From a bacterium (GTDB lineage: Bacteria; Patescibacteriota; Dojkabacteria; JAKAPS01; JAJZLI01): a stretch of DNA of 64,000 bases. This document shows, in pieces, positions 28,167-46,932 of the stretch; position 1 is the stretch's first letter; every line of letters begins with the position of its first letter. The position numbers and the translations under genes are program-made. The stretch spans positions 71,484-135,483 of the forward strand of contig JAJZWL010000001.1 in NCBI GenBank assembly GCA_021846685.1. The letters are read 5' to 3'. The notes under the pieces are model-generated. The model saw only the letters and a list, made by a program, of their open reading frames with translations. It had not been told where the DNA came from and made no database searches.

Positions 28167-28246
28167 AGACTATATAAGAATATAGTGTGGAAATTTTAAA
28201 TTAAGATATATTTACTTCGGGAGACAGTAAACGCTATTCGAACTTT
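28167..28246 (-). repeat. Pseudo-tRNA-Ser 3'-end repeat (Y1) plus about 50 bp copy of the tRNA-Ser(TGA) downstream flank, inverted
   Basis: Reverse complement AAAGTTCGAATAGCGTTTACTGTCTCCCGAAGTAAATATATCTTAATTTAAAATTTCCACACTATATTCTTATATAGTCT is near-identical to 46760-46833, the 3' end and flank of tRNA-Ser(TGA). Confidence 0.7.
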
Positions 28247-28251
28247 TAGGA

Positions 28252-28293
28252 TTGACATATCAAGGAGTTCCTAATATACTAGGAACTAGGAAC
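28252..28293 (+). promoter_or_regulatory. Sigma70-like promoter (TTGACA-17-TATACT) overlapped by a palindromic operator GTTCCTAatatacTAGGAAC plus a third TAGGAAC half-site
   Basis: Direct reading at 28252-28293, 19 bp upstream of the ATG of the wHTH-PRTase gene. Confidence 0.45.
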
Positions 28294-28311
28294 TTGTATT
28301 AATTTAAAATT

Positions 28312-29292
28312 ATGAAACAAACAACTTCTGAGAAAATAATAGAGTATATAAATAAATTTGGCAGAGCTACTGGAAAAGAGCTATCTGACGCTATTCCCGC
28401 CATCACTAGTAGAGCTATAAGAAAACAGTTGAAATCTATGCTCGAGAAAAATATTCTTGAGAAGATAGGGAAACCTCCTAAAGTGTATTATCTTATTGCA
28501 ACCAGTAAAAATGTACCTAATCCAGTTTTAATTAATAAAAGTGTAATGGCACTTATCAATGATAGATATTTATATATATCTCCCACTGGCAAGATGAAGG
28601 AAGGTTTAGATGGGTTTGTTATGTGGTGTGAATACACTCACCAAGATATAAAAAATACTTCGATTAAATATCTAGAAACAATAAAAAAATATGATCAATT
28701 TAAGAAAAATAGCCTTATAGATGGAATGCCCAAAATGAAGAGTACTTTTGATCCTGTTTTTGTAGACAAACTTTTTTATTTAGATTTTTATAGTATAGAG
28801 AGATTTGGAAAAACAAAGCTCGGTCAAATGCTTCTTTATTCAAAACAAAGTCAAAATAAAGCACTTATACAAAAATTAATAGCTACTATCCGCCCTAAAA
28901 TCATAAAAGTTATTGAGGATTATAATATTGATGGAGTATTATTTATACCACCAACTGTAAAAAGAGAAATACAATTTATGAAAGAATTAGAAAAATTTCT
29001 GAAATTACCAATAAAAAGAATATCTGTCACAAAAATAAAAACAGAAATTATTATTCCTCAAAAAACATTATCAAAACTTGAAGATAGAGTTGAAAATGCT
29101 AAACGCACTATAATGGTAGATGATTTTGATTTATATACCAATATACTGATTATTGACGACGCTGTAGGCTCGGGTGCAACATTAAATGAAACAGCAAAAC
29201 AAATAAAAAATAAACATATAGTAAGAGGAGATATAATTGGACTTGCAATAACAGGGAGTTTTAAAGGATTTGATATTATTAGTGAAGTATAA
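28312..29292 (+). CDS. Winged-HTH plus type-I phosphoribosyltransferase-domain protein (PurR-like architecture)
   Basis: N-terminal wHTH (GRATGKELSDAIPAITSRAIRKQLKSMLEKNILEKIG), C-terminal PRPP-binding motif NILIIDDAVGSGATLNETAK. Confidence 0.55.
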   Translation: MKQTTSEKIIEYINKFGRATGKELSDAIPAITSRAIRKQLKSMLEKNILEKIGKPPKVYYLIATSKNVPNPVLINKSVMALINDRYLYISPTGKMKEGLDGFVMWCEYTHQDIKNTSIKYLETIKKYDQFKKNSLIDGMPKMKSTFDPVFVDKLFYLDFYSIERFGKTKLGQMLLYSKQSQNKALIQKLIATIRPKIIKVIEDYNIDGVLFIPPTVKREIQFMKELEKFLKLPIKRISVTKIKTEIIIPQKTLSKLEDRVENAKRTIMVDDFDLYTNILIIDDAVGSGATLNETAKQIKNKHIVRGDIIGLAITGSFKGFDIISEV

Positions 29293-29585
29293 ATATCTTT
29301 TCCATAAATTATAATTTACTATATATTCATTTCTTCAGGCTCATTGGGATTAATTTAGAACTTTTGTTAATAGTTATTCCACCACTCACTATCCTTATAT
29401 TAAGACAAATATATTAGTAATATCTAATATATTCTTAAATTAGGATATTTTATTCCCCAATAAGACTTTATTGAGCCCTTTGTCTTAAGAGATTTTACAC
29501 CTTAGAGGCTATTTTGAGTATAGGTATTTCTATTTCTAAATTTCAAATCAGTAGGAGGTCATGAAATTAATAACATTTCGTCTTA

Positions 29586-29614
29586 TTGACAAAAACTATA
29601 GGATCTTATATAGT
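29586..29614 (+). promoter_or_regulatory. Sigma70-like promoter TTGACA-17-TATAGT upstream of hydrolase paralog A; near-identical to the promoter of paralog B
   Basis: GTCTTATTGACAAAAACTATAGG... versus GTCATTGACAAAAATTATAGG... on the minus strand at 45868-45896. Confidence 0.5.
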
Positions 29615-29646
29615 ATACTCAATTATTTTTAACCTACTTAAATATA

Positions 29647-30693
29647 ATGAGTGCAGAAGAAACAGATAAGCAAATAAAAGATTCTCTTGGAACTATATCT
29701 GGACATTTTAGAGAATTCAATAATAATGCACCTCATTTTTTAGTGGATGGTGAAAACAAAGAGAATATAGAGGAGCTTCTTCCAGAAATAAAATTTGATG
29801 AAGTTAGAGATGCAGAAACCGAACAAGTATATAGAATTTTTATCATTAATAAAGAGATGCTCGAAGAAGGAAAGGTACCTCTTGTTCTTACATTCCAATA
29901 TAATAAATATAATATAGGAATAGATGACCCCTATTCTCAAGAGTTAGCGCAAGTAATGGCTCAAGGAGGAAGGCCTATTATCGGAATAGAAAGTCCGTCA
30001 GTTGGAGGTTCTTCTGATATGACTAAAGCACAAGAAGATAACTTAAATGTAGGAAAGAAACCTTTTGAAGAGATATCAAGAAGTCAATTAAGAGCACTTT
30101 CTGGGGAAATTTATCACAAAAGTAATAAGGATAAAGAAATAGATTTCGGAGGATATTCTCAAGGGGCAATTAATGCTTTGAGTAACGCTGAAGTAGCAGA
30201 TGAATTTGATTTAAAAGTTAGAAATGTTGTTATGCTCGATCCACCAGGCATAACAGATCATACTGAAGGTAAAGGAAGGAAGTGGGCAATTGTTGGATTG
30301 GGCAGAGCAATGAGATCAGAAACTTCAAATCTAAGTTTTTATGGATTTGATGATAAAAAATATTCTATTTTAGCAAAAAGTCTATCAATTAAAAATGATG
30401 ATATTTTTTTAAGAAAAATGCAAATTTTATATTCTGCTGCTACAGGCAGAATAGTTCTTCCTGAAATTTTAAGATCAGTATTATCAAAACAACCTCAGAT
30501 AAAAATAACTTTTATAAACGGATCTGAAAGTAAAATTACATTAACTGAGGATAGAAAAAAATTATTTAGAGAGTTTAGTAATGATAAGAGAATAAGATGG
30601 ATAGTTCTTCCAGGAGATACTCATTCAGTAGGCGTGAATGTTAGAAGAATCGGATGGTTATTTAAATTTATAATGAAAGATCAACGTATGTGA
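29647..30693 (+). CDS. Alpha/beta-hydrolase-fold protein, paralog A (putative esterase/lipase)
   Basis: GxSxG nucleophile elbow FGGYSQGA, C-terminal LPGDTHSVG (catalytic His candidate). Shares REFNNNAP.FL.DG, FINGS.S and RIG motifs with the 44786-45844 product at about 35-40% identity. Confidence 0.5.
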   Translation: MSAEETDKQIKDSLGTISGHFREFNNNAPHFLVDGENKENIEELLPEIKFDEVRDAETEQVYRIFIINKEMLEEGKVPLVLTFQYNKYNIGIDDPYSQELAQVMAQGGRPIIGIESPSVGGSSDMTKAQEDNLNVGKKPFEEISRSQLRALSGEIYHKSNKDKEIDFGGYSQGAINALSNAEVADEFDLKVRNVVMLDPPGITDHTEGKGRKWAIVGLGRAMRSETSNLSFYGFDDKKYSILAKSLSIKNDDIFLRKMQILYSAATGRIVLPEILRSVLSKQPQIKITFINGSESKITLTEDRKKLFREFSNDKRIRWIVLPGDTHSVGVNVRRIGWLFKFIMKDQRM

Positions 30694-30798
30694 ATCACCA
30701 CAGTCTAGGTATAATACCTGATTATCTGATAATCTAGATTGTAGATAACTCCATTGAATATATAATCCATATAATAATGAGATTTATTCTTAATATGT

Positions 30799-30834
30799 AA
30801 TCGGAGGCGATACGCCTTATTTTAAACTATTTTA
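30799..30834 (-). repeat. Pseudo-tRNA-Ser 3'-end repeat, hairpin subtype (X1)
   Basis: ATCGGAGGCGATACGCCTTATTTTAAACTATTTT; its reverse complement reads AGTTTAAAATAAGGCGTATCGCCTCCGAT, resembling the T-arm/acceptor 3' end of tRNA-Ser(GCT). Confidence 0.55.
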
Positions 30835-30863
30835 TAAATGGATTACAAAATTAATTTATAAAT

Positions 30864-31931
30864 TTAAGCTGTAGGGTTAAAATAGTTTTCCACTGCAAAT
30901 CTGGATTGTTGCATAAATATATTTTTTAATAAACTTAAATTGTTTATTTCATAAAATACTAACATTGCTTCCCTATATTCATTAACATCTACATTTCTAA
31001 AAGATAATGGAAAAGAATTATGCGATAGTAGTAAAGCATTTGCAATAATTCTTCCTGTTCTTTTATTTCCATCCTCAAATGGTTGTATATATCCAATTAA
31101 TGGTATTGTAAGTAAAGCTTTTTCAAACACATTAGTTTTATTGTTAATAATTTTACAATATTGCTCTAATGCCTCTCTTATCTGAAAAACATTATCTAGT
31201 GGTTTATAGTTTGTTCCTGTTATTCTAACCAAACTATTTCTAATGTTTTTTGTCACACCCAAGTTGTCAATTAACAGTGAATGAATATGTTCAATTATTC
31301 CAACATTTAGTTCTATAAATTGGTCACCATTCTGTAATATGAATTCTAACGCTTTTTTGTGATTTATAATCATTATGGCCTCCTCTTTCTTTTTACCTTT
31401 TGCTTCTATACCGTCTTTTAAAAGAGTTTCAGTTTCAAGTAGAGTATATGTATTACCTTCCAAAACAGAAGATTTCCAGCTTATTTCAATTATTGCTCTT
31501 TCAAACTCTTTTTTTCGAATAACATCACTTAACTGTTTTACATTACCATTAAAATTTTCATTTAGAGTATTTAATTCAGATAATTCTTCCTTCGTCAATA
31601 TTTCATTTTGAACCAATGAAAATATATTACTATTGAATCTCTCTATAATTTCTCTATGATCAATATCTTTTTCATAATATTCCTTAGTATTTATATTCCT
31701 GAGTAAATTATATTTTATACTTAATCTATAACTAGTAGCTTTACCATTACCATGCTTCTCGATTAAATTTAAATTTAATAAATAAGACAGATCTCTATTT
31801 ACAGTCATGAAAGAGACTTCTTCATCAACAGTTTTTAAAAAATCAGTTATTTGAGATCTACCTAGCCACTTTTGAGTGGAAAGAATATTTAAAAGTTTGG
31901 ATTGTCTTTTATTTAATTTCATAATATTCAT
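30864..31931 (-). CDS. Fic/DOC-family protein with N-terminal wHTH
   Basis: Fic motif HPFEDGNKRTGRIIANALL (HPFx[DE]GNGR) and N-terminal HTH (SQITDFLKTVDEEVSFMTVNRDLSYLLNLNLIEK); 355 aa. Confidence 0.8.
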   Translation of the reverse strand: MNIMKLNKRQSKLLNILSTQKWLGRSQITDFLKTVDEEVSFMTVNRDLSYLLNLNLIEKHGNGKATSYRLSIKYNLLRNINTKEYYEKDIDHREIIERFNSNIFSLVQNEILTKEELSELNTLNENFNGNVKQLSDVIRKKEFERAIIEISWKSSVLEGNTYTLLETETLLKDGIEAKGKKKEEAIMIINHKKALEFILQNGDQFIELNVGIIEHIHSLLIDNLGVTKNIRNSLVRITGTNYKPLDNVFQIREALEQYCKIINNKTNVFEKALLTIPLIGYIQPFEDGNKRTGRIIANALLLSHNSFPLSFRNVDVNEYREAMLVFYEINNLSLLKNIFMQQSRFAVENYFNPTA

Positions 31932-32065
31932 AACATAATAGCAATATAATCATAACATTTCGTTACATATTTGTAAATAATATGTTACGTAAATATAGTG
32001 AATGGCAGTAAGGAAAGACTAAATTCGTAAGCTATATCAACATTGTATGGATATTTATAATGGGG

Positions 32066-32112
32066 TTGTCACATCAATCGGAGGCGATGCGCCTTATTTC
32101 GAACTATTTTTG
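32066..32112 (-). repeat. Pseudo-tRNA-Ser 3'-end repeat, hairpin subtype (X2)
   Basis: AATCGGAGGCGATGCGCCTTATTTCGAACTATTTTTGTGTTGG; its reverse complement AGTTCGAAATAAGGCGCATCGCCTCCGATTGATGTGACAACCCCAT parallels the tRNA-Ser(GCT) 3' end and its flank TGGATGCGACAAC. Confidence 0.6.
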
Positions 32113-32143
32113 TGTTGGCTCACTAAATTAATGGACATTTATT

Positions 32144-32440
32144 TCAATAAACTTGATTATGACTTCCAGTATCAACAAATACAAAGACAACATTATTTTC
32201 TTTCTCATAGTAGATAATCCTGCAATCTCCTGTTACTGAAAACGATCGGTACATTTTCAACTTTCCAGTTAATCGATGATCTTGTAGTATAGGGGTAAAA
32301 CGATCTTCTAAAAATAAATCAATGCGCTGTTGAACACGTTGTTCTAAATTTGTTTGATTGCTGATTCTTGCTTTAAAATGTTTAATAAAATCCTTTGTGT
32401 ATTCAATTCTCTTCTTCATCTTTGAAATTTCTAACTGCAT
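32144..32440 (-). CDS. RelE/ParE-family type II toxin
   Basis: 98 aa; IEYTKDFIKHFK...RIIYYEKENNVVFVFVDTGSHNQVY matches RelE/ParE; overlaps the upstream antitoxin gene. Confidence 0.7.
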   Translation of the reverse strand: MQLEISKMKKRIEYTKDFIKHFKARISNQTNLEQRVQQRIDLFLEDRFTPILQDHRLTGKLKMYRSFSVTGDCRIIYYEKENNVVFVFVDTGSHNQVY

Positions 32441-32729
32441 CTATAATGTTTTTCCCGGAATAGGCAGTATACAAATTGCCATTCTTGGTCTCTGCTTCTA
32501 TTTCTGCTCGTTTTTTATCTAGATATTCTTCAAATTCTGGAGAAATATGTTCATCAGCATGTGGAGAAGAAAGAGTAAGCTGAATGTCTCCTTTGGAAAA
32601 ACTCATAATAAATATCCTTATTACCTCTTGAAGAGAACTATAGCCATAATCATGGGCTACCTTTTCTGCCTGTTTTTTTACAGATTTATTAAGAGGAACT
32701 TGTATTTTAGCGTAATCTGTTTGAATCAT
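32403..32729 (-). CDS. Putative antitoxin partner of the RelE/ParE toxin
   Basis: 108 aa acidic protein immediately upstream and overlapping the toxin gene; family not assigned. Confidence 0.45.
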   Translation of the reverse strand: MIQTDYAKIQVPLNKSVKKQAEKVAHDYGYSSLQEVIRIFIMSFSKGDIQLTLSSPHADEHISPEFEEYLDKKRAEIEAETKNGNLYTAYSGKNIIDAVRNFKDEEEN

Positions 32730-32941
32730 AATTCTTTATTTATTATTTACTTTCATTATTATACCACTTTGATACTTTTTGTCAACATATTACATCTGTT
32801 CAGATTCTTATCAGGTTGAAAAATTAAAACATTAATGAATAATTTATTAAGCAAGAATAGAAACTTTAAACTGAAAAATGAATCCCTTTATCAAGATTAT
32901 TGCTTGGCTTATTGATTTTTGTATTATGTTGTCGCATCCAT

Positions 32942-33029
32942 CGGAGAGAGAGAGATTCGAACTCTCGCGAGGATTTCTCCTCCTAAGGGTTTAGCAAACC
33001 CTCCCCTTCAGCCACTTGGGTACCTCTCC
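32942..33029 (-). tRNA. tRNA-Ser (anticodon GCU)
   Basis: Minus-strand read GGAGAGGTACCCAAGTGGCTGAAGGGGAGGGTTTGCTAAACCCTTAGGAGGAGAAATCCTCGCGAGAGTTCGAATCTCTCTCTCTCCG. Anticodon loop TTGCTAA, long variable arm, T-loop TTCGAAT, no encoded CCA. Confidence 0.85.
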
Positions 33030-33078
33030 AAATATAATAAAGTATATCAAAAAATGAGTTTATATAAAAGTTAATTGT

Positions 33079-34011
33079 ATGTTGTATAATATATTATTAA
33101 TGAATAATAAAAATAAAATCTTAATATTTTTTCTTGTAGTTATAGTATATTTTTCTATATTAGTTTTAGTTTTTATACACTTTATAAATATTCCTGTAGT
33201 AGGGAACAAAGAAAGAAAGGTGGGCATAAATTCTAAGATAAATATAGTTGCATCTGTAAATTATTTCAATCCTTTTAATTTCAAAACTCAAAATTCATCA
33301 ATATCAAGTACCTCTTCAGGAAAGGTTATTCAGTCAAATATTGTTGCAAATTTTGCAAGTATAAAAAATGAGACAATTATCTACTTCGTGCATAAACAAT
33401 GGAAATATACAATAAACGCCACAAATACTCTATTTAAAAAGGATAATGTAATAGTTTATTATAAAAAAAATGGACATAATACTTTATTGGAAATATACAT
33501 ACCAAATAGCTTTAAAATATCTGACTTAGTATCATTATTTGATGTTAACTATAGTACCTATTCATATCCCTTTGACTATACTCAGATGAATGATACTTTG
33601 GCTTCTTTAGATACGACATATACTCCATATATAAGAAGTACTTCTTTTGTTTTTTATAAAAATAATTTCAATAATGTTGGTCATTTCCAGTACAACACAC
33701 CAATAGAAGAAATTAAGGGTGTCTCAATGATTAATACTTCTTCACAAGGGAGTATTAATAGTCTTCTACATGAGTATATGTCAAGGTTTTCTATATGGGG
33801 ATATATTCCTTTTACTGTATATGGAGCTATAATTGATAATAATACAATATATTATCTTAAGTATGGTTTAGGGGGTGCGAGTATAAAAGTTTTAGTTAAA
33901 CCTGAAAATGGATATTCTTTTGTATATTATAGTATAAAAGTCTCTGCTTCTTCTTCAAACAATAATTTATCCTTGTTTAATAGATTGGGATGGAGTAGTG
34001 TATTTAATTAA
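33079..34011 (+). CDS. Hypothetical membrane-anchored/secreted protein
   Basis: N-terminal signal-anchor ILIFFLVVIVYFSILVLVFIHFINIPVV; Asn/Ser/Tyr-rich ectodomain; no family. Confidence 0.35.
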   Translation: MLYNILLMNNKNKILIFFLVVIVYFSILVLVFIHFINIPVVGNKERKVGINSKINIVASVNYFNPFNFKTQNSSISSTSSGKVIQSNIVANFASIKNETIIYFVHKQWKYTINATNTLFKKDNVIVYYKKNGHNTLLEIYIPNSFKISDLVSLFDVNYSTYSYPFDYTQMNDTLASLDTTYTPYIRSTSFVFYKNNFNNVGHFQYNTPIEEIKGVSMINTSSQGSINSLLHEYMSRFSIWGYIPFTVYGAIIDNNTIYYLKYGLGGASIKVLVKPENGYSFVYYSIKVSASSSNNNLSLFNRLGWSSVFN

Positions 34012-35079
34012 GCTTTGAGAGTTTAATTTTATTTGTGTATACCAATTAGATAGGTTGTGGATTAAATCTTTATCCTTAGTATTTAATGCAATTTCAGATG
34101 TTCCAAATAATACTCCGAATGTTGAAAAGTTATGTGATCCTATTATTAAAGAAGAATTAGGGGCATTTTTATCTAAAATTATCATTTTTGCATGTATATA
34201 CTTTTCAGACTGCTCATATAAATTAGAAAGATTTATATTGCTTAAATTAAATAGTATTTGCTCTATTTTATGTCTAATTTTTTTTTCGGCAATACTATTT
34301 GAATGTACAATAATCTCAACTGCAAGACCTCTTTTAACGGCTTTCTGAAGTGCAAAAAGAATTTTAAAATCTGGTAGGAATTGAGATATATAGCTAATAT
34401 CTTCTTTCGCATTATTTATAGCATTAATGGCCTCATTATATATGATAGATTGTCCTTTTTTCCCAGAATCTATAAGAAGTGAATTTTCTTTATTAATATT
34501 GACTATCTTGTCACTATATTTTATTCCTGTACTGTTCTTTAAGAAGATACTTTTTAAATTATTTCTAATTTCTCTGTCTTTTGTTTTCACCATGAAGTCA
34601 TAATAATTAAAAGATTTTTTCCCAAAATTCATTCCACCTATATATGAATAATTATCAATTATAGTTATTTTCATATGATTTCTTCCTATAAAGGGGAAAT
34701 ATTCAGCTATAGCTTTATTATATCTATATTCATTGATAAAATTGATTTCAATATCAGCAGATGTCATTTCTTTGAAATATTTTTGACTTATTTGAATATT
34801 ATTTTTACATTTATCTCTTTTTTCTTTATTTATATGTATAAAATACTTGTGTCCTTGGATATATTGATTTGAGTAATTATCAATATTGAATTTAACTGAG
34901 ACCCCTCTTTTTTTAGCTGCTATAACTTCTTTTGTAAATTCTTTTAAAGAATCATCAAAATATACATACATTGCTTGTATATATATATTTTTTTTTGCCT
35001 TTTTAACAAGTTGAATAAGATCACTTAGATATTCTTCTGAAGGTATTAATTCATACATTACTAATATACAATATATCAA
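33967..35079 (-). CDS. Phospholipase D-family protein with two HKD motifs (cardiolipin-synthase-like, no TM)
   Basis: HMKITIIDNYSYIGGMNFG and HAKMIILDKNAPNSSLIIGSHNFS, i.e. two HxK(x4)D(x6)G(S/G)xN motifs. Confidence 0.75.
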   Translation of the reverse strand: MIYCILVMYELIPSEEYLSDLIQLVKKAKKNIYIQAMYVYFDDSLKEFTKEVIAAKKRGVSVKFNIDNYSNQYIQGHKYFIHINKEKRDKCKNNIQISQKYFKEMTSADIEINFINEYRYNKAIAEYFPFIGRNHMKITIIDNYSYIGGMNFGKKSFNYYDFMVKTKDREIRNNLKSIFLKNSTGIKYSDKIVNINKENSLLIDSGKKGQSIIYNEAINAINNAKEDISYISQFLPDFKILFALQKAVKRGLAVEIIVHSNSIAEKKIRHKIEQILFNLSNINLSNLYEQSEKYIHAKMIILDKNAPNSSLIIGSHNFSTFGVLFGTSEIALNTKDKDLIHNLSNWYTQIKLNSQSLIKYTTPSQSIKQG

Positions 35080-38620: not shown

Positions 38621-38710
38621 GGAGAGATGCTGGAGTGGTTTATCAGGCTGTTCTCGAAAAACAGTATTCTTCTAAACAAAGGATCGTAAGTTCGAATCTT
38701 ACTCTCTCCG
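38621..38710 (+). tRNA. tRNA-Ser (anticodon CGA)
   Basis: GGAGAGATGCTGGAGTGG...CTGTTCTCGAAAAACAG...GTAAGTTCGAATCTTACTCTCTCCG; anticodon loop CTCGAAA, long variable arm. Confidence 0.8.
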
Positions 38711-38775
38711 ATTTTATTACTAAAGTTTAAATAAGATTTAATATATATATTCTATATGATGATAATGTATATCAT

Positions 38776-39030
38776 ATGAAAACTATGATTGTACAAGACA
38801 ATAAGATACTTAATGGTAAACCTATTATAAAAGGCACTAGGATGTCTGTTGAAATAATATTAGAACTTTTGTCATCAGGATTAGAAATTAATGATATTCT
38901 TAAAGAATATGAATATTTAAATAGAACTCAAGTTTTGTCTGCTATATCATATGCATCAAATTTGATGAAGAAGGAAGATACATATATATTCAATAATCAG
39001 AAAAGTGTTATAAAGGAAATTCCTAATTGA
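38776..39030 (+). CDS. DUF433-family protein (putative antitoxin of a DUF433/DUF5615 pair)
   Basis: GKPIIKGTRMSVEIILELLSSGLEINDILKEY matches the DUF433 core. Confidence 0.65.
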   Translation: MKTMIVQDNKILNGKPIIKGTRMSVEIILELLSSGLEINDILKEYEYLNRTQVLSAISYASNLMKKEDTYIFNNQKSVIKEIPN

Positions 39031-39373
39031 TGCAAATATTCCTAAATCTGTAATAGATTATTTAATAAATAATAATTTTGATGTTATTGATATTAAAAAG
39101 GTTAATATAACAATGTCAGATATAGATATTATTAAATTAGCTCAAAAAGAACAAAGAATAATCATCACATTAGATAAAGATTTTATAACTTTAATACAAT
39201 ATCCTAAATATCAAGTATCAACAATAGTTATAAGATTAAAAATTTTAAAATCAGAGAATATTATTTCCTATTTAGATGAACTTTTTGTTGTCAAACCATT
39301 AAGATTGAGAATGAAAATCCACAAAAACAGGAGAGTTTTCTATGGTCTTAATTGGTATCTTCATATAGGTTAA
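39014..39373 (+). pseudogene. DUF5615-family (PIN-like) gene lacking a canonical start and 3'-truncated by an IS3 insertion
   Basis: The frame open from 39014 reads ...LIDANIPKSVIDYLINNNFDVIDIKKVNITMSDIDIIKLAQKEQRIIITLDKDF, a full DUF5615 N-terminal motif. There is no ATG/GTG/TTG upstream of the internal Met at 39113, only an ATT at 39026. The reading frame runs into the IS left end at about 39306. Confidence 0.5.
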
Positions 39374-40099
39374 TTTCTCTGGTTTTATGTTTAAAGGATT
39401 AACAGGTATTTTTACTTTTTTATGTTCTTTAAGGTAATTTTCAAGCTTTTGTAAAGGTGTCTTGTACTTATTTGTTGAATGAGGTCTTTGCGTATTGTAG
39501 AAGTATGCCCATTCTCTAAATATATCTTGTATATTATCGTTAGAGAGTATAAATGATGCTAATCCTTCATATTTATCTGTTTTCCACGATCTTTCTATTA
39601 CCCCATTGTGTTCTGGTGTATATGCCTTTGTGTAAGAAAGGAGTACATTTAATCCATGTGCTAGATCTCTGTATGATGATGCTTTGTAACAGGATCCATT
39701 ATCCATGATTAAGGTTATTGGAAACGATATACATGTTTTTACAAGTTGTCTTAGTATTGCCTCTGATGTAATTGATCCTGAGAATGTTGATACTTCTAGT
39801 GCTACTATTTCTCTATTGAATATATCTATGACCTTAAATGCATAAACCCAACCTTTATTTATCCATAGATGTGTGAAATCAGTTTGAAATATTGATCTTG
39901 GGATATCACATTGAATCTTTTTATGATTAAATTCATATGTACCTTTTTCAGGTTTTCTTCCTATGATATTTTCTTCTTTCATGAAGTAATATACACCCCT
40001 ATATGATATTGTTTGGCCTCGTACTTTTAGATATGCTGTTATCATTAGATATCCCCATCCATACAACAAATCAAGCTCTTTTATTGCATTCTTATTCAC
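39299..40099 (-). CDS. IS3-family transposase OrfB (rve integrase core)
   Basis: DDE-region motifs QTDFTHL, IMDNGSCYKA, HNGVIERSWKT, NTQRPHS. The frame is open upstream to the slippery site, so it is expressed as an OrfAB fusion. Confidence 0.75.
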   Translation of the reverse strand: MNKNAIKELDLLYGWGYLMITAYLKVRGQTISYRGVYYFMKEENIIGRKPEKGTYEFNHKKIQCDIPRSIFQTDFTHLWINKGWVYAFKVIDIFNREIVALEVSTFSGSITSEAILRQLVKTCISFPITLIMDNGSCYKASSYRDLAHGLNVLLSYTKAYTPEHNGVIERSWKTDKYEGLASFILSNDNIQDIFREWAYFYNTQRPHSTNKYKTPLQKLENYLKEHKKVKIPVNPLNIKPEKLTYMKIPIKTIENSPVFVDFHSQS

Positions 40100-40254
40100 A
40101 TCAGGTAATTCTTCCCTTTTATTCTTTTTTTGAGAATAACCCTTTTTTTTGTAATATATTTTATTACAAGATATCCCTAAAAGTTTAATGATCTTTGTTA
40201 TCCTTATTCCATTTACACAAACCTCTAATATATCATCCCTAGTTACCTTCTTTA

Positions 40255-40533
40255 CTAAATCTTTTTTTTTAACACTGATAGAGCAGTTTGAGATTCTGCA
40301 AGTGCAAGTTTAGTATCTTCTAGATCTTGTTTTACCCTTACTAATTCTTGGTTATCAGACCTATCATCAGATAGTGCTTTATATGCATTGTTCAAAAACT
40401 TATCCTTAACCTTTAAAAAGTATGATACAGATATATCATATTTAGCAGAAATAGCTGAAAGAGATAATCTGTTACCTAAATGATCTAAAACCATGTTTGT
40501 TTTTTGTTCTGTTGTAAATTTTTTCATATTCAT
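40255..40533 (-). CDS. IS3-family transposase OrfA (HTH)
   Basis: 92 aa, ...LSLSAISAKYDISVSYFLKVKDKF... HTH and C-terminal leucine-zipper-like heptads; ends in KKKI at the slippery run. Confidence 0.7.
   Translation of the reverse strand: MNMKKFTTEQKTNMVLDHLGNRLSLSAISAKYDISVSYFLKVKDKFLNNAYKALSDDRSDNQELVRVKQDLEDTKLALAESQTALSVLKKKI
40262..40270 (-). other. Programmed -1 ribosomal frameshift site A_AAA_AAG joining orfA to orfB
   Basis: Minus-strand TTA AAA AAA AAG ATT TAG. Reading on in the -1 frame gives KKKDLVKKVTRDDILEVCVNGIRI... with no stop, continuous into OrfB. Confidence 0.6.
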
Positions 40534-40754
40534 ATTTTATCACCTCCTTATATATTTAATTGTAAAAGATCTAACGTTTGTGAATGAAAGTTTTAATTAA
40601 AAAACTCTCATTCACTTATTCTCATTTTACCTGTTGAAGTACATTTTTGAAAAACAAAATCAAAATTTATTAAATAATTCATTAACTATTATTAATAATG
40701 ATCAAGCAGATTCTTTTGAATTTGAATAATATTTAGATTTTTAATAATACAAAA

Positions 40755-40795
40755 AGTTCGAATATCGTCTACAGTCTCCCGATGGATGCGACAAC
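40755..40795 (+). repeat. Pseudo-tRNA-Ser 3'-end repeat (Y2) carrying the tRNA-Ser(GCT) downstream flank
   Basis: AGTTCGAATATCGTCTACAGTCTCCCGATGGATGCGACAAC; the last 15 nt are identical to the flank just 3' of the genuine tRNA-Ser(GCT) at 32927-32941. Confidence 0.65.
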
Positions 40796-40821
40796 ACTTG
40801 AGAAAGTGACTGAATATATTG

Positions 40822-40848
40822 TAGTTTCGAACTAAATAAGGTGTTCGA
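40822..40848 (+). repeat. Truncated hairpin-subtype pseudo-tRNA-Ser repeat (X4)
   Basis: AGTTTCGAACTAAATAAGGTGTTCGATG, related to X1-X3. Confidence 0.4.
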
Positions 40849-40958
40849 TGATAGAATTTTGAAGCCTTTATATGCCCTTATATGACAATAAATCTATATT
40901 ATAGGAGATTTTTGCTCGAACTCATACATATATTAAGATCGCCATTGACTATTTCACA

Positions 40959-41582
40959 ATGACCCCGTATAATGGGGGTATTATGAAACAGTTTAAAGAT
41001 GTAGAGAGATTAGAATACTTTGACCTAAAGACTTTAAAGAACTTTGTACCACTAGAGAGTAAATCCTTGTATAAACTGGTAAATAGGAGAGTAAAAGATC
41101 TGACTTTTATACAATTGAAAAAAGGATTATACACTACAAAAGCATTTATAGAAAATAATGATATGCTTTTATATAAAGAAAATATTGCAAATATTCTTAA
41201 AACTCCTTCATATATAAGCTTAGAGTATATGTTGTCAAAATACTCAATACTCACAGAAAGTGTATTCTCATTTACCTCTGTATCTACTAAGAAGACCAGA
41301 AGCTATATAAATACTTTAGGGACATATTCTTATAGAAATATCAAAGAAGATCTTTTTACAGGTTATGTAATAAGAAATAATATATATTATGCAACAAAGG
41401 CTAAATCGCTATTTGACTATATTTACTTTAAAAAAGAAGTATTAGAACTTGAGTCATTGAGATTAAACTTAGATGAATTTACTAAGTCAGATATAAAAGA
41501 ATTTAAAATATATTGCAAGAAATCTTCACGTATGCTTAAAATATATAATTTATTATTGAAATATAAAAAAAATGTTTATTGA
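40959..41582 (+). CDS. AbiEi-family antitoxin/regulator, copy 2
   Basis: 207 aa immediately upstream of and overlapping a DUF1814 toxin gene; same architecture as copy 1. Confidence 0.55.
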   Translation: MTPYNGGIMKQFKDVERLEYFDLKTLKNFVPLESKSLYKLVNRRVKDLTFIQLKKGLYTTKAFIENNDMLLYKENIANILKTPSYISLEYMLSKYSILTESVFSFTSVSTKKTRSYINTLGTYSYRNIKEDLFTGYVIRNNIYYATKAKSLFDYIYFKKEVLELESLRLNLDEFTKSDIKEFKIYCKKSSRMLKIYNLLLKYKKNVY

Positions 41583-42573
41583 AAAACTAAAACAAATAGT
41601 AAAGATGAAAAGTATAAAAAATCCGGAACTTCTAAGGGTTATTTTGAAGATGGAGCTTATTGAATATGTTTTACAGTATATTTATACGTCAAAATACCGT
41701 AATTTAATATTTAAAGGGGGAACATGTTTAAATATCTGTTATGATTTACCTAGACTTTCAGAAGATATAGATTTGGATTTTGTTAACGAGATAGATATAA
41801 GCTCATTAAGAGAAGATTTGATATCATATTTTAAAACTGAACTTGCATATGATAGGCTTTACGCCTCAGTAACAAATAATAATCAAACTATAACTTTAAA
41901 ATTTCCTGTTCTTAGGGATTTAGGTTTAGCAAATCAAAGCGAAAGTGATTTGTTATATATAAAACTTGATATACAAAAATCTCCATTCTTTAATATTACT
42001 ACTGACTTAGTTCCGAGAAAAAACTATGTAATTAAAGCTTATTCTCTTCCTCTGTTATTTACTGGGAAAGTAAATGCCATTTTTACTAGAAATAAGTTAG
42101 TTGGAAAAGAAAATAAATTTGTACCAAAAGGAAGAGATTATTTTGATTTACTTTGGTTTCTACAAAAAGGAATAAGACCAGATATTTCAATGCTTGAACA
42201 GGAACTGAATATATCTTCAAATATTGAATTTAAAGTTCGTTTAGATCAAAGAGTAATCGGTATGTTTACTAAATATAAGGATGAAATAATAAACGACCTA
42301 AAGCCATTTATTGAAAACACCGACATTCTTAATCAATTTGTAGAATCATTTTTACCATTATATTTAAAATATTCATTAGAGATTTTTGATTATAGAGTTC
42401 CTGATGAAGTATCAAGGCGAAATTATTTAATTGATGAGCTTAATTCTATTATAAAAGGGAAAAAGCTACAGGGCAAAGAAATTATGAAGGTTCTTAATGA
42501 TATGGATACTTATAAGAAAGGTTCTAACAATCTAGATATTCTAGGAATATACAATTATTTAATATCTTTATAG
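41572..42573 (+). CDS. AbiEii/AbiGii-family nucleotidyltransferase toxin, copy 2
   Basis: LIFKGGTCLNICYDLPRLSEDIDLDFV DUF1814 hallmark; 333 aa. Confidence 0.7.
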   Translation: MFIEKLKQIVKMKSIKNPELLRVILKMELIEYVLQYIYTSKYRNLIFKGGTCLNICYDLPRLSEDIDLDFVNEIDISSLREDLISYFKTELAYDRLYASVTNNNQTITLKFPVLRDLGLANQSESDLLYIKLDIQKSPFFNITTDLVPRKNYVIKAYSLPLLFTGKVNAIFTRNKLVGKENKFVPKGRDYFDLLWFLQKGIRPDISMLEQELNISSNIEFKVRLDQRVIGMFTKYKDEIINDLKPFIENTDILNQFVESFLPLYLKYSLEIFDYRVPDEVSRRNYLIDELNSIIKGKKLQGKEIMKVLNDMDTYKKGSNNLDILGIYNYLISL

Positions 42574-42656
42574 CTCCAGTAATAACTAATACTATTATTG
42601 GAATTTTATGGGTAATTATATTTAATAGATCTTTACTTGCATTATACATATATATT

Positions 42657-42845
42657 TCAGTAATTATTATTTGTCTGATCTTTTATATAATAAAGAATAT
42701 GAGTTTTACCAACTTGCCTTGCGCCATGCAAGACTATTATATTACTGTCATTGATATAACGCATTATATCCTCCACAATGTCTCTTTCTATTACCTTTGT
42801 ATTCATAGTCACGACAATATTGTAATACTCTAAAATTAGAGTCAA
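42657..42845 (-). pseudogene. N-terminal fragment of a P-loop ATPase (DUF4143/AAA-like)
   Basis: 62 aa ORF with IIVLHGARQVGKTHILYYI Walker A and nothing downstream; full-length relatives are about 400 aa. Confidence 0.5.
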
Positions 42846-42906
42846 TCTTGTTTTTAGAGTATTTTCTTAAGAGATTATTTATTATAGATTTTCATAAATT
42901 TTGCAA

Positions 42907-42949
42907 TCCAACACAAAAATAGTTCAAAATAAGGCATATCACCTCAGAT
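42907..42949 (+). repeat. Pseudo-tRNA-Ser 3'-end repeat, hairpin subtype (X3)
   Basis: CCAACACAAAAATAGTTCAAAATAAGGCATATCACCTCAGATT, the reverse complement of the X2 sequence with a few substitutions. Confidence 0.6.
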
Positions 42950-42962
42950 TTAATATGATGTA

Positions 42963-43955
42963 TTGAATTTTTATTATATAATTAAAGATATGGATTCAAT
43001 ATTATCTCCAATAAAAAAAGTTTTACCATTAATGACGAATGTTTTGATTGACGAAGAATCAATTTATAAATTTTCAATAAATATAGATAAATCATATCTT
43101 TTAAAATCTGAATATAATAAAGATACTTTGTTAGGCGAAAATTATGGAGAAGAAGAATATATAGCTTTTGTATTTGTATATAACAGTTTAAATTTTTCAT
43201 ACTGGGGATATCCTAAGTGGACTATAAATATACAAGGTAATAACTATGATGGAAGTGCAGCAATGATAAGAGCTATTAAGAGAGCAATCACAGAAGGACA
43301 TAATATATTAAATTCCAAATTCCTTATAAATTTAACAAAGAAACAATTAAGTGAAATATTTAGAGGAAATATAGAGATTCCCTTATTTAAAGAGAGATTA
43401 AAATTATTAAATATTCTTGGGGAATTGATAGAAAATAAATATCAAGGTTCATTTAAAAAATTTATTGATGAGGCAAAATGGGATGCAGAGTTGATAGTAG
43501 AAAAATTATCAAAAGAACTACCAGATATATTTAATGATACTAATATATATATAGGACAAAATATTAATTTTTATAAAAGAGCGCAATTAATACCAGCCCA
43601 TTTATATGATTTATATAATTTAAATATTATAAAATCTCCAATTTATAATATTGACAAATTAACAGCATTTGCTGATTATAAAGTTCCTCAATTAATGAGA
43701 AATTTAGGTATTATTAAATATTCATCTGATCTATCTTATAAAATTGATAATCTAATAGAGATACCAGCAGGGAGTAATGACGAGATAGAAATCAGAATAG
43801 CTACTATTTGGGCAATTGAATTGTGTACAAGGCAAATTAAAAAATATATTCCTCAAGTTACTTCAACACAAGTACATGGAGTTTTTTGGTTTTCAGGACA
43901 AAAATCTAATATTGAAATTAAGCCATATCATCGTACACGAACCATTTGGTATTAA
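42963..43955 (+). CDS. Queuosine-salvage-family protein (DUF2419/Qng1-like), tentative
   Basis: YNSLNFSYWGY and FADYKVPQLMRNLGII resemble conserved blocks of the Q_salvage family; 330 aa; start may be the internal Met at about 42990. Confidence 0.45.
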   Translation: MNFYYIIKDMDSILSPIKKVLPLMTNVLIDEESIYKFSINIDKSYLLKSEYNKDTLLGENYGEEEYIAFVFVYNSLNFSYWGYPKWTINIQGNNYDGSAAMIRAIKRAITEGHNILNSKFLINLTKKQLSEIFRGNIEIPLFKERLKLLNILGELIENKYQGSFKKFIDEAKWDAELIVEKLSKELPDIFNDTNIYIGQNINFYKRAQLIPAHLYDLYNLNIIKSPIYNIDKLTAFADYKVPQLMRNLGIIKYSSDLSYKIDNLIEIPAGSNDEIEIRIATIWAIELCTRQIKKYIPQVTSTQVHGVFWFSGQKSNIEIKPYHRTRTIWY

Positions 43956-43959
43956 TAAA

Positions 43960-43997
43960 AGTTCGATTCTCTCTCTCCGATGGATCCGACAACCCCA
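43960..43997 (+). repeat. Pseudo-tRNA-Ser 3'-end repeat (Y4), closest to the genuine tRNA-Ser(GCT) end
   Basis: AGTTCGATTCTCTCTCTCCGATGGATCCGACAACCCC versus genuine AGTTCGAATCTCTCTCTCTCCGATGGATGCGACAAC. Confidence 0.65.
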
Positions 43998-44166
43998 TTG
44001 CAAATGTCTATCAAATGTTGATACGTCGGGATGATTTATCAGTTATATTAATTGATAATAATTTTGGATTACAAAAATAATGAGATTAAAATGTTCCGGT
44101 ACTAATAGGTACTTGACAGTACTTCTGAGTGTAGTATAATATAAATTATAGTTTAGAAACATTCAT

Positions 44167-44427
44167 ATGGCTACAACAATACAGGTAAAATTAACATTAC
44201 CAAAAAAGATAAAGGATTATTATGATTCAAAAGCAGCAGAATTTGATATGCAAACTTCTACTTTCATAAAATATCTACTTATCAAGAATATTGAAGATGA
44301 GAGTATTCCAACATATCAAGCTTCTAAATATACAGAAAAATATATTACTAATGGGTTGCAAGAATATAAAACTGGAAAACTTAAAAAATTTACTAGTCAT
44401 AAAGATTTTATTAAAACGGTATCTTAA
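44167..44427 (+). CDS. Putative RHH-type antitoxin of a RelE/ParE pair
   Basis: 86 aa, 2-nt gap to the toxin gene; paralogous in architecture to 46933-47214. Confidence 0.45.
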   Translation: MATTIQVKLTLPKKIKDYYDSKAAEFDMQTSTFIKYLLIKNIEDESIPTYQASKYTEKYITNGLQEYKTGKLKKFTSHKDFIKTVS

Positions 44428-44429
44428 GG

Positions 44430-44702
44430 TTGATAATAAACTATTCATCAAAATTTACTAATCAGTATAAAGAGCTTATAAAAACTAATAAGAAACTTAC
44501 TCTCAAGGTTGATAAGAAGATAGGCTTTTTTATAAATAATCCTTATCATCCGTCATTAAGAACGCATAAAGTAAGTACAACTAAGGCGGGAGTAGCATTT
44601 TCATTTTGGGTGGCAGGAGATCTACGTATAATATTTACATGGGTAGGAAAAAATGAAGTACTATTTTTGCTAATAGGAAATCATAAAGAAGTTTATAAGT
44701 AG
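44430..44702 (+). CDS. RelE/ParE-superfamily type II toxin (YafQ/RelE-like)
   Basis: HPSLRTHKV...GDLRIIFTWVGKNEVLFLLIGNHKEVY; 90 aa; paralog of 47207-47482. Confidence 0.65.
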   Translation: MIINYSSKFTNQYKELIKTNKKLTLKVDKKIGFFINNPYHPSLRTHKVSTTKAGVAFSFWVAGDLRIIFTWVGKNEVLFLLIGNHKEVYK

Positions 44703-44785
44703 AAGTAATTTTTAAATTAAATATAAAATTTTTTATCTTTGGAATTTTGTTTAATCCTACAATCTTATATTGGGGGATATATTTA

Positions 44786-45844
44786 TTATTTTGTAGTTAA
44801 TCTATAGAGATTTCCAATCCGTTTAGCTCTTTCTCCTACTGCATGAGTATCTCCTGGGAGTATAATTCTTCTCACTCTAGATTGCATTCCTTGAGGAATG
44901 CTATTGTTTAAATCTTTAGAGGAGCTGATTGTACTTTTTGATCCATTTATGAAAATAACCCTCATATCAGGCTGACTTTCTAATGCTGATTTCAACATAT
45001 AGGGAACTATACGTCTTGACATTCCTGCAGGATAAGCAGTAAACATGCCTTTTCTTCTCATTGGTTTTAATACTAAATCTTTTCCTAATTTTGCATATGT
45101 TTTTACAGGATTTTTCTTATTATCAACACCACTAGCTTCTCTTTGTTTTTTGTCATGAGGGTCTTTTTCGTAAAAACTTAAGTTAGGGGCATCTGAAGCA
45201 AAAGCTTTCATTATTCCAATACTTGCTTTGGTTTTTTTTAATTTTTTTCTTTCAGTAAAATCTTTTACTCCTGGAATCTCAAGAGCAAATAAAGTTTTGA
45301 CTGTAAATCCAAAATCATCAGCTTGTTCTGCTAAACTTAAAGCTATAAGAGCTCCTTGAGAATAACCAGCCAAATCAATTTCACAAGTATTCCCAAGTAG
45401 AGGCTCTAATGCTCTATACATTGATTTAGATAATTGTGAAAAGGGATTATCATTTTCTCTTAAAGATTTTGCTTGTGTTCTAGTCATATCAGAAGACTCT
45501 CCTACAGAATGACTCTCCACTATTATAATGGGCTTAGATTCTGCTGCCATTTCTTGAGCTAGGTATAATATTGGTTTGTGTTCTATTCCTATATTATATT
45601 GTAATGTGAGTATTGTAGGGGTATCTCCTTTTTTTAATGCTTCCTCATTTAAGATAGCTACTCTTAATGTTTGTCTTGTTTCTGGGTCTTCAATTTCAGT
45701 ATAAGTAATAGGGGATTCAGATATATTTTTTGGATCTTTGCCATCAATTAAAAAAGAAGGAGCGTTATTGTTAAATTCCCTCAAATTCTGAGACGCAGAA
45801 TTGCTCCCAGTAGTATTTCCTTCTATAAATGTCTCTATTCCCAT
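44786..45844 (-). CDS. Alpha/beta-hydrolase-fold protein, paralog B
   Basis: LAGYSQGA nucleophile elbow, LPGDTHAVG; same motif set as the 29647-30693 product. Confidence 0.5.
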   Translation of the reverse strand: MGIETFIEGNTTGSNSASQNLREFNNNAPSFLIDGKDPKNISESPITYTEIEDPETRQTLRVAILNEEALKKGDTPTILTLQYNIGIEHKPILYLAQEMAAESKPIIIVESHSVGESSDMTRTQAKSLRENDNPFSQLSKSMYRALEPLLGNTCEIDLAGYSQGALIALSLAEQADDFGFTVKTLFALEIPGVKDFTERKKLKKTKASIGIMKAFASDAPNLSFYEKDPHDKKQREASGVDNKKNPVKTYAKLGKDLVLKPMRRKGMFTAYPAGMSRRIVPYMLKSALESQPDMRVIFINGSKSTISSSKDLNNSIPQGMQSRVRRIILPGDTHAVGERAKRIGNLYRLTTK

Positions 45845-45867
45845 AATATTTTTTAATATAAAAACAG

Positions 45868-45896
45868 ATTATATTCTAACCTATAATTTTTGTCAA
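45868..45896 (-). promoter_or_regulatory. Sigma70-like promoter TTGACA-17-TATAAT for hydrolase paralog B, conserved with the paralog A promoter
   Basis: Minus-strand GTCATTGACAAAAATTATAGGTTAGAATATAAT. Confidence 0.5.
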
Positions 45897-46009
45897 TGAC
45901 AACATTCTCGTCATATATATATGCTTATGTACTGCAATATTATTTACATGTTTGACATTTTCTATGGGGTGTAATAATATATTTATATTAATTTTAGTTT
46001 TATATATTT

Positions 46010-46600
46010 ATGGGGACAGAGACAGATTTAAACTTACGTTTTAATGGTGATATTGTAGCTGTTGGAATAACTGATCAAGGTATAAGATATGAAAAATCTG
46101 AAACTCAGGAAGTTCTTCCTAATGATGGATATGAAGTAACTACCAGTACTAAGTATTCTGATGGACATAGAAGTAAGGAGAGGTATGTTCATAGAAATGA
46201 TGAGCAAGGAAATCCTATTGAAAATATTGTGTCTGTAGAAGATAGTAATACTCAAGATGTTGTAACATTTTTTAAATTTGAAAGAACTTCTTTTATAGAT
46301 AATACGCGTATTACAACTGAAGTGATAAGAGATGATGAAGGGAACTTAAAGGAATATACCTATAGAGGTTTTGTTTCTGGAAGCAGAGTTTTAACATCAC
46401 ATCACATAGAATATGGAGATGATAATAAAAGATTAAGAGAAGTAATAGTGAAATCAAATAATCGTACTATAAGTACATTTAATGATAATGGTGAATTATT
46501 AAGGAGGGAAATTGTAAGGGTAAAAGGAAATCAAGAAATAACTGCGATTTATGGAAGTGATGGTAAAATCATAGAACATAAGAAAACTTTTTTAAGATAA
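46010..46600 (+). CDS. Hypothetical protein with degenerate beta-rich repeats
   Basis: 196 aa; recurring DG..(E/K)Y...G short repeats; no family; divergent from hydrolase B. Confidence 0.35.
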   Translation: MGTETDLNLRFNGDIVAVGITDQGIRYEKSETQEVLPNDGYEVTTSTKYSDGHRSKERYVHRNDEQGNPIENIVSVEDSNTQDVVTFFKFERTSFIDNTRITTEVIRDDEGNLKEYTYRGFVSGSRVLTSHHIEYGDDNKRLREVIVKSNNRTISTFNDNGELLRREIVRVKGNQEITAIYGSDGKIIEHKKTFLR

Positions 46601-46692
46601 AGTTTGGTTAATTTAAATTTGCATGTATTATAATCTCTATTTGGATGATATAATCATTTTTATAAATAATTTCTATTTATATGAAACTGTAA

Positions 46693-46779
46693 GGAGAGGT
46701 GGCCGAGTGGTTGATGGTAACAGTCTTGAAAACTGTCGGGGGTGAAAGCTCCTCGTGGGTTCGAATCCCACCCTCTCCG
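46693..46779 (+). tRNA. tRNA-Ser (anticodon UGA)
   Basis: GGAGAGGTGGCCGAGTGGTTGATGGTAACAGTCTTGAAAACTGTCGGGGGTGAAAGCTCCTCGTGGGTTCGAATCCCACCCTCTCCG; anticodon loop CTTGAAA, long variable arm. Confidence 0.85.
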
Positions 46780-46932
46780 AAGTAGATATATCTTAACTTG
46801 AAATTTCCACACTATATTCTTATATAATCTATTTATAAACGTATATAATTATTATCTATAGTAAAAAATATTCTTTAATTGACAAAAACTAACTAAAATG
46901 GTATTGTTTAGTATATACTTATCAATAATAAT

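Follow-up and report, generated by a model that had tools for sequence, protein, structure and literature searches.

Serine tRNA gene ends and short pseudo-elements as probable junctions for module swapping and inversion in a 20-kb island of a Patescibacteria genome

We analysed a 64-kb stretch of DNA (64,000 nucleotides, positions 71,484 to 135,483 of contig JAJZWL010000001.1 in assembly GCA_021846685.1; hereafter "the window") from a bacterium with 27% GC that belongs, as the source names of its homologues also indicate, to the Patescibacteria, or candidate phyla radiation (CPR), and in which an inverted repeat brackets an 18.5-kb segment. The repeat lies in a 20-kb island where the 3' ends of tRNA-Ser genes, together with short pseudo-elements, probably act as junctions for the swapping of gene modules and for inversion, and where the arms of the repeat are the leaders of two copies of one toxin-antitoxin module. 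The observations behind this reading are the anatomy of the junctions, the presence, absence and swapping of modules, the near-identity of modules across species, and an inversion relative to a related genome. Relatives were retrieved with window-encoded proteins and one DNA-pattern scan; they include a close strain (locus L020) and three other species, designated S (loci L013, L015-L019 and L029-L031), O1 (L032-L034) and O2 (L038).

The window carries three tRNA-Ser genes and eight pseudo-sites, all of them between 28.2 and 47.5 kb. The pseudo-sites are three copies of an element X, three of an element B, one degenerate element J and one partial tRNA copy. A regular expression, GTTYGAA-N8-26-CTCC(C)GA, detects seven sites (the three tRNA-Ser genes and four pseudo-sites), compared with 0.03 in shuffled sequences. 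Strand follows position: left of 33 kb the sites are all on the minus strand, right of 38.6 kb all on the plus strand. They form two diverging arrays, one running leftward from tRNA-Ser(GCT) (32941-33030, minus strand), the other rightward from tRNA-Arg(GCG) and tRNA-Ser(CGA) (38534-38710, plus strand) through tRNA-Ser(UGA). All three tRNA-Ser genes are intact, and modules begin directly after their common end, ...CTCTCCGA. The copies of X are X1 (28217-28247, minus strand), X3 (40751-40782, plus) and X2 (47504-47534, plus). Element B is about 55 nt long with the end GGCGCATCGCCTCCGA, and its copies are B1 (30801-30855, minus; ..GGCGTATCGCCTCCGA), which is the 3' element of a Fic module and a direct repeat with B2 (32078-32132, minus), and the degenerate B3 (about 42894-42948, plus). 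J (29335-29365, minus; AAAAGTTCTAAAT..GCCTGA) is followed by a leader, AGAAATGAATAT.

Most of these separators (X, B and J) are not copies of tRNA genes; the one true partial copy, of the 3' end of tRNA-Ser(GCT), is at 43957-43980. The tRNA-Ser genes themselves are 60-70% identical in pairwise comparisons, with exact matches of at most 11 nt, and X shares no more than 10 nt with any of them. X folds no better than shuffled sequences, or does so inconsistently (z from -2.4 to +0.3), and B offers a 5-bp hairpin only; a fold like that of integron attC sites was rejected for both on this comparison. Rfam at gathering thresholds returned three tRNA matches and nothing else.

The initial annotation described an inverted repeat pair of about 80 bp, and local alignment bears it out at greater length: 28112-28224 (minus strand) matches 46774-46884 (plus strand) over 113 columns with six mismatches and two one-base gaps (~93% identity), reaching about 55 nt further outward than first described. 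An exact 36-nt block within the repeat has two matches in the window, one per strand, against none expected in shuffled sequence. A TTGACA -35 box forms the outer end of both arms, and a promoter scan pairs each box with a -10 element, giving predicted promoters TTGACA-18-TACAAT at 28117-28088 on the left and TTGACA-17-TATTGT at 46879-46907 on the right. The left arm had also been taken for a copy of the 3' end of tRNA-Ser(UGA), and this did not survive. The tRNA gene (46693-46779) contributes just its last 6 nt to the repeat, and positions 28225-28246 belong to a different element, X1 (AAAAGTTCGAATAGCGTTTACTGTCTCCCGA). X1 (31 nt, AAAAGTTCGAAT..GTCTCCCGA) and the tRNA-Ser genes have in common only the T-loop box GTTCGAAT and the end CTCC(C)GA; the spacer of X1 is longer and unrelated. 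Each arm adjoins a junction resembling an attachment (att) site, and the two junctions are opposed. X1, on the minus strand, forms the inner edge of the left arm, and the 3' end of tRNA-Ser(UGA) with the shared A after it (46693-46780, plus strand) forms the inner edge of the right; the bracketed segment runs from one to the other.

The arms are the ~105-nt leaders of two copies of one RelB-like/YafQ-like toxin-antitoxin module. The intact copy (46781-47534, plus strand) consists of the leader, F (46781-46884), an antitoxin-like gene (46933-47214), a YafQ-like toxin gene (47207-47482) and, as its 3' element, X2 (47504-47534). The left arm, F' (28112-28216, minus strand), has lost the genes and is fused at TTTAATTGACA to the promoter of an AbiEi gene. 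Both copies would have inserted directly after a ...CTCC(C)GA junction: the intact one (plus strand) adjoins a genuine tRNA gene, tRNA-Ser(UGA), whereas the decayed one (minus strand) adjoins the pseudo-site X1. The left copy of the window strain would have been trimmed to its leader by deletion at an 11-nt microhomology.

Less trimmed versions of the left copy are found in relatives. In the close strain L020 the likeness to the right arm does not stop at TTGACA: behind X1 it runs on through the promoter, the 5' untranslated region and the first codons, at least 63 nt beyond the window's repeat, and toxin-antitoxin gene fragments are added; a helicase gene, a dehydrogenase gene and then the AbiEi promoter, beginning ..TTTAATTGACA, come after these fragments. 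A further relative (loci L036 and L037) carries a short F, a pseudogenised toxin-antitoxin pair and a decayed X directly upstream of AbiEi/AbiEii, and L036 keeps a full F module of ~650 nt. Judged from this comparison, the window strain has apparently lost everything between two TTTAATTGACA motifs, which would be why the repeat stops at the -35 box. The arms have diverged by ~7%, and the duplication is therefore not recent. In the strains L020 and L021, a ~70-bp solo fragment of the end of the window's IS3-family insertion sequence (IS) replaces the 3' end of X1. Scans of viral contigs for F and X gave no matches. A single Joint Genome Institute (JGI) metagenome match to a 22-nt piece of F has nothing else in common with the window and was set aside as a chance match.

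The cargo of the modules is small and mostly of toxin-antitoxin or defence type: two AbiEi/AbiEii pairs, two YafQ-family pairs, DUF433/DUF5615 and Fic, with a queuosine-salvage gene and two paralogues without assigned function in addition. The leaders that follow ...CC(C)GA fall into families, each found behind at least two different upstream sites. Leader F (AGTARATATATC..) stands behind tRNA-Ser(UGA) and behind X1. Leader TGGATGCGACAAC.. stands behind tRNA-Ser(GCT) in the window and tRNA-Ser(UGA) in species S, and also behind X3, Xa, B2 and the partial tRNA copy. Upstream of leader TTTTATTACTAAAG.. is tRNA-Ser(CGA) in the window; in species S it is a B element. Leader AGAAATGAATAT.. follows J in the window and, in species S, Xb (L015) or tRNA-Ser(CGA) (L019, L029).

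Whole modules vary in the same way. L020 is 97-98% identical to the window in DNA, and its ATPase is 99% identical, but it is without exactly the 863-bp module at 32078-32940, and its tRNA-Ser(GCT) runs straight into the Fic leader, which in the window comes after B2. Behind tRNA-Ser(CGA) the same strain has a methyltransferase module, compared with the DUF433/DUF5615 module of the window. In species S the 863-bp module is found behind tRNA-Ser(UGA) (93% identity), the DUF433/DUF5615 module behind a B element (96-98.6%), and an AbiEi/AbiEii module directly after tRNA-Ser(GCT). Between the window and species S the island modules are 93-98.6% identical in DNA, whereas the tuf-S10 operon is 77% and the ATPase-PLD region 70% identical. 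The excess of module identity over that of tuf-S10 points to recent horizontal exchange of the modules. The window species and species S also co-occur in one sample series (ERZ27237063 yields contigs of both), and ongoing exchange between the co-resident populations is suggested.

Two smaller differences concern the junctions themselves. After the stop codon of the queuosine-salvage gene (TAATAAAAGTTCGA..), the window has the tRNA-Ser(GCT) 3' copy and species S an X element (L013, about 3270-3300); this swap at 43957-43980 is limited to ~20 nt between a conserved GTTCGA box and the leader CGATGGAT... Directly downstream of tRNA-Ser(CGA) in species S (L029, 7991-8461) lies a decayed, internally deleted second copy of a module with a 328-residue gene, and it ends exactly where an X would start (..CAATCCTA). 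The end of this copy hints at the GTTCGAA box as a second crossover point.

In BLAST comparison with O1, window positions 32941-46780 are inverted and the flanks (14.5-20.9 kb and 51.7-54.4 kb) are direct; the ends of the inverted stretch are the 3' ends of tRNA-Ser(GCT) and tRNA-Ser(UGA), homology to O1 stopping at the A shared after the latter. Inverting 28224-46774 in silico brings all O1 matches into collinearity on one strand, and inverting 32941-46780 does so equally. Since O1 has nothing that corresponds to the modules at 28.2-32.9 kb, the left breakpoint can be placed no more closely than within that interval. An alternative inversion of 26.7-37.9 kb was rejected; it does not restore collinearity and has no repeats at its ends. 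Writing U, C and G for tRNA-Ser(UGA), (CGA) and (GCT), "core" for the ATPase-PLD block and < or > for the strand when tuf points right, the arrangements are U< C< core> G> in O1, U< G< core< C> in O2, G< core< C> U> in the window and C< core> G> U> in species S (L029). The orientation of the core block relative to tuf varies among related species. Four species have four arrangements, each of which becomes another through one inversion between two opposed tRNA-Ser genes. O1 and O2, for example, are related by inversion of the block between tRNA-Ser(CGA) and tRNA-Ser(GCT), and the ends of that inversion are tRNA-Ser genes with no X or B detectable by the regular expression close by. Cumulative GC skew rises steadily outside the island (1-26000 and 47000-64000) and is flat over 26-46 kb, which fits a mosaic, repeatedly inverted region within one replichore.

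In species S the orthologue of X1 is Xc. The species also offers an analogue of the window's repeat. A 260-bp inverted repeat, 98.8% identical, lies by tRNA-Ser(CGA) and by Xb and brackets 11 kb. In another sample of this species (L019) we found the junction expected of the inverted isomer, with Xb-side alleles from nucleotide 105 after the core and the switch therefore within 104 nt of the core.

A historical inversion at att-like sites is supported by these comparisons. The initial annotation had inferred either a duplication followed by an inversion or homologous recombination between inverted att-like sites, and this was right in kind and wrong in detail. The opposed att-like junctions, the collinearity with O1 on re-inversion and the arrangements in four species agree with it, and O1, a related genome, does carry the segment in the opposite orientation; the duplicated sequence, however, is a toxin-antitoxin leader and not a tRNA 3' end, and the repeat is the scar of two insertions of one module.

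On the mechanism we favour, the common 3' end of the three tRNA-Ser genes and the 31-55-nt X and B elements would serve as recombination junctions. Modules would be gained, lost and exchanged at them, and recombination between oppositely oriented junctions would invert the intervening DNA. RecA-type recombination between the tRNA-Ser or X sites is unlikely, since exact identity does not exceed 11 nt among the former and 10 nt for the latter. Because the breakpoints are also precise and recurrent, site-specific recombination at ...CTCC(C)GA is favoured. A site-specific recombinase whose gene lies elsewhere in the genome, and which is most likely a tyrosine recombinase, would catalyse these events in place of homologous recombination.

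A parallel is found in the Thermococcales, where the integrase of pTN3 drives chromosomal inversions between inverted tRNA genes in Thermococcus (PMC5495485). In both cases breakpoints lie in oppositely oriented tRNA gene pairs and recur among close relatives, and the homology at them is too short for homologous recombination. The tRNA genes at the archaeal breakpoints are attachment sites of mobile elements, and the tRNA-Ser ends of the window are att-like. Unlike the Thermococcales, the window belongs to a bacterium, neither an integrase nor an integrated plasmid was found in it, its sites comprise three tRNA-Ser isoacceptor 3' ends together with pseudo-sites that are not tRNA genes, and the segments measure 6-18 kb, compared with 70-140 kb.

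Several points weigh against this reading. The checked open reading frames (ORFs) of the window and the Pfam columns of related loci gave no integrase, resolvase or invertase domain, in a look-up that spanned ~64 kb of the genome together with flanks of 10 kb in relatives; all that turned up was one IS3 transposase and one DDE fragment. X and B are not true copies of tRNA 3' ends and have no convincing fold in common. Among 185,579 species genomes the X pattern occurs in one other species only, so the system, if real, is narrowly distributed. A deletion could also account for the absence of the 863-bp module from L020, since imperfect direct repeats ~24 nt long (CTCCGATKGATGYGACAAC) flank it. 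RecA recombination could have produced the inversion, acting on two copies of the F module that were longer than today's. The inverted isomer of species S is represented by a single 3.6-kb metagenome contig. Finally, the core block of O2 is oriented as in the window, and with core genes of the three other species about equally far from those of the window, the inversion has no assignable polarity. A scheme with species S as sister and O1 as outgroup was abandoned in view of this equal divergence (70-77%) and of the window-like core block in O2. A recombinase hidden among the 310-, 197- and 196-residue proteins encoded beside the tRNA genes was considered and rejected; judged from the translations alone, with no fold search, they resemble, respectively, a protein anchored in the membrane, a membrane protein with two helices and a soluble protein of repeat-like type. 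Overall, the conserved neighbours of the tRNA genes appear to be membrane or secreted proteins, or remain unassigned.

A more specific proposal is an integron-like system for capture and inversion, in which a recombinase encoded elsewhere would use the tRNA-Ser 3' end as anchor and X and B as cassette sites, moving modules and flipping segments as a side reaction. We regard this as a tentative idea, possible rather than probable. In integrons the tyrosine recombinase IntI is encoded beside the array, and the attC sites are imperfect palindromes that fold into long single-strand hairpins; toxin-antitoxin cassettes are abundant in sedentary chromosomal integrons. Like an integron, the island is an array of small modules, each with a conserved 3' element, that insert at an anchor or between modules, vary in presence between strains and are rich in toxin-antitoxin genes. 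Unlike an integron, it has modules with their own promoters and some genes antisense, its anchor is the end of a tRNA gene, and no attI/Pc platform (attI site and cassette promoter) was found. The defining tests of an integron failed: neither an IntI gene, among the window ORFs checked and the Pfam columns of related loci, nor an attC-like fold of the 3' elements was found.

The island might instead be what is left of larger, integrase-bearing islands that entered the tRNA-Ser genes repeatedly and then decayed, losing their integrases and most of their cargo, with X, B and the partial tRNA as att remnants and with RecA inversion between longer copies of F and its toxin-antitoxin genes, so that no cassette system would exist. 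The true partial copy of tRNA-Ser(GCT) at 43957-43980 and the window's want of a recombinase both favour this account, and so does evidence that the ancestral repeat exceeded 113 nt (at least 63 nt more plus fragments in L020, the full module of ~650 nt in L036). Tandem accretion of integrative elements that target tRNA genes is familiar from streptococci, in cis-mobilizable elements and integrative and conjugative elements (CIME/ICE). As in such accretion, insertions adjacent to the tRNA genes follow one another with att-like separators, newer ones pushing older ones outward, and the remnants lack integrases; insertion at the 3' end leaves the tRNA intact, as it does at all three tRNA-Ser genes. 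The tycheposons of Prochlorococcus likewise show tandem integrations separated by partial tRNAs, and inversion linked to duplicated cargo (10.1101/2020.12.28.424599). The modules here, however, are only 0.75-2 kb, have their own leader and promoter, are without an integrase in the window and in related loci alike, and are 93-99% identical across species whose tuf is 77% identical. Most of the separators are distinct conserved elements of 31-55 nt (X and B) that have only two short boxes in common with tRNA-Ser and recur 3' of different small modules in two divergent species. The O1/O2 inversions, moreover, end in tRNA-Ser genes where no X or B is detected by the regular expression and, as measured in the window, exact identity is at most 11 nt. 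On this evidence we consider decay of integrase-bearing islands unlikely, and continue to prefer recombination at the tRNA-Ser, X and B junctions.

The initial annotation had also suggested that the segment could still be invertible. As a programmed switch, the 18.5-kb segment would flip often in the population, in the manner of shufflons or Hin/Gin segments, and change the genes behind outward promoters. Promoter-like -35 boxes do stand at the outer ends of both arms, and an inverted-isomer contig may exist for the species S analogue. Flipping would nevertheless not rewire the arm-end promoters, because they point outward, at fixed genes. No alternative junction was seen for the window species in any arm-spanning contig, although these are assemblies, in which minor subpopulations would be missed. 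The loci read were L001-L004 on the left and L007-L010 on the right, of which L001, L007 and L010 come from one 83-kb contig, leaving about six distinct; look-ups from both sides count four to five more similar contigs and gave no alternative junction. With one orientation throughout, arms that differ by ~7% and no invertase gene among the checked ORFs of the window, there is no support for a present-day switch, and we judge frequent flipping very improbable. Shufflons and Hin/Gin segments have an adjacent invertase (Rci, Hin) and supply alternative gene ends. The island resembles them in having several short sites in both orientations, with inversions that give multiple arrangements, but its segments carry housekeeping tRNA genes and an ATPase, and both tests of a programmed switch failed (no adjacent invertase, one orientation only).

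A mis-joining of metagenome contigs at the repeat is hardly credible: short Logan contigs (L005, L006, L011 and L012) do break within it, but the 113-nt repeat is shorter than the k of 141 used for the ENA contigs, the 83-kb contig (ERZ27237478:k141_217578) covers both arms, and independent assemblies of other samples together with NCBI metagenome-assembled genomes give identical junctions at 100% identity.

The remaining features of the island are as follows, from left to right. A module bounded by X1 and J encodes a 326-residue protein with helix-turn-helix (HTH) and phosphoribosyltransferase (PRTase) regions (28312-29292, plus strand). Its C-terminal part matches the PsyrT PRTase model; the species S version, encoded between Xb and Xc, is 87% identical, and homologues with 60-70% identity number more than 4000 across Patescibacteria. 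Upstream of the gene (28248-28311) a conserved palindrome, GTTCCTAGTTCCTAGTATATTAGGAAC, overlaps a predicted promoter. In two distant lineages the homologue lies just downstream of a tRNA gene (tRNA-Lys, tRNA-Glu). Distant homologues (67-69% identity) stand in unrelated contexts with no X or B elements and are uninformative on the island.

A 348-residue protein with a GYSQG motif is encoded in the minus-strand array (29647-30693, plus strand), and its 352-residue paralogue at 44786-45844 (minus strand). The two are 41% identical over 349 residues (E = 6e-78) and point into the segment, as first annotated. The label "hydrolase" given to them then found no Pfam, PADLOC or PDB-sequence match, and its sole support is the GYSQG motif, which resembles a nucleophile elbow in the alignment. 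The Fic-domain gene (30864-31931, minus strand; Pfam Fic, PADLOC SoFic/PDC-S04) forms the module between B2 and B1. The 863-bp module (32078-32940, minus strand) consists of leader TGGATGCGACAAC.., a 108-residue gene, a YafQ-family toxin gene and B2 (32078-32132). The core block between the two anchors (33079-38525) encodes the 310-residue membrane-anchored protein (plus strand), a PLD-family protein (minus), the P-type ATPase (minus) and the 197-residue membrane protein (plus).

In the plus-strand array, the DUF433 and DUF5615 (PIN-like) module (38711-40782) ends in X3 (40751-40782). An IS3-family element at 39288-40643, with an rve-domain ORF (39299-40099, minus strand) and a 92-residue ORF (40255-40533), splits its DUF5615 gene, which is uninterrupted in species S and in L036. 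It is followed by an AbiEi/AbiEii module ending in the degenerate B3 (40783-42948, plus strand) and by the queuosine-salvage gene with the partial tRNA-Ser(GCT) copy (42963-43980, plus strand). Directly after X2 (AGTCACGCCACATCGCG..), at 47535-47889, a 101-residue ORF has a weak DDE_Tnp_1 match and no counterpart in related loci; it looks like a transposase remnant abutting the junction. We had considered X2 followed by AGTCACGCC as the original flank of tRNA-Ser(UGA), with the empty site reading tRNA then CACGCC, and dropped this in view of the transposase fragment there and its absence from relatives. Further right, downstream of the island, two direct-repeat pairs (127 and 114 nt, 83-85% identical) at 47958-48199 and 49669-49916, spaced by ~1714 nt near an M23-peptidase-like gene, have the look of a local duplication that has since diverged.

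Patescibacteria have tiny genomes, and to our knowledge few of their mobile elements are well characterised and the exchange of defence and toxin-antitoxin genes among them is poorly understood. The locus described here is an exchange hotspot defined at the level of sequence, with exact junctions, modules nearly identical across species and four inversion isomers in four relatives. New here are the phylum of the host, modules that are very small and lack integrases, 3' elements (X and B) that do not copy a tRNA, and three tRNA-Ser isoacceptors used interchangeably. Should a dedicated recombinase indeed be at work, tRNA-Ser ends would form the base of a new kind of cassette platform, and the island would be a bacterial counterpart of chromosome flipping in the Thermococcales. 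If there is none, it would still be a clean case of short tRNA-derived sites shaping the plasticity of a streamlined genome.

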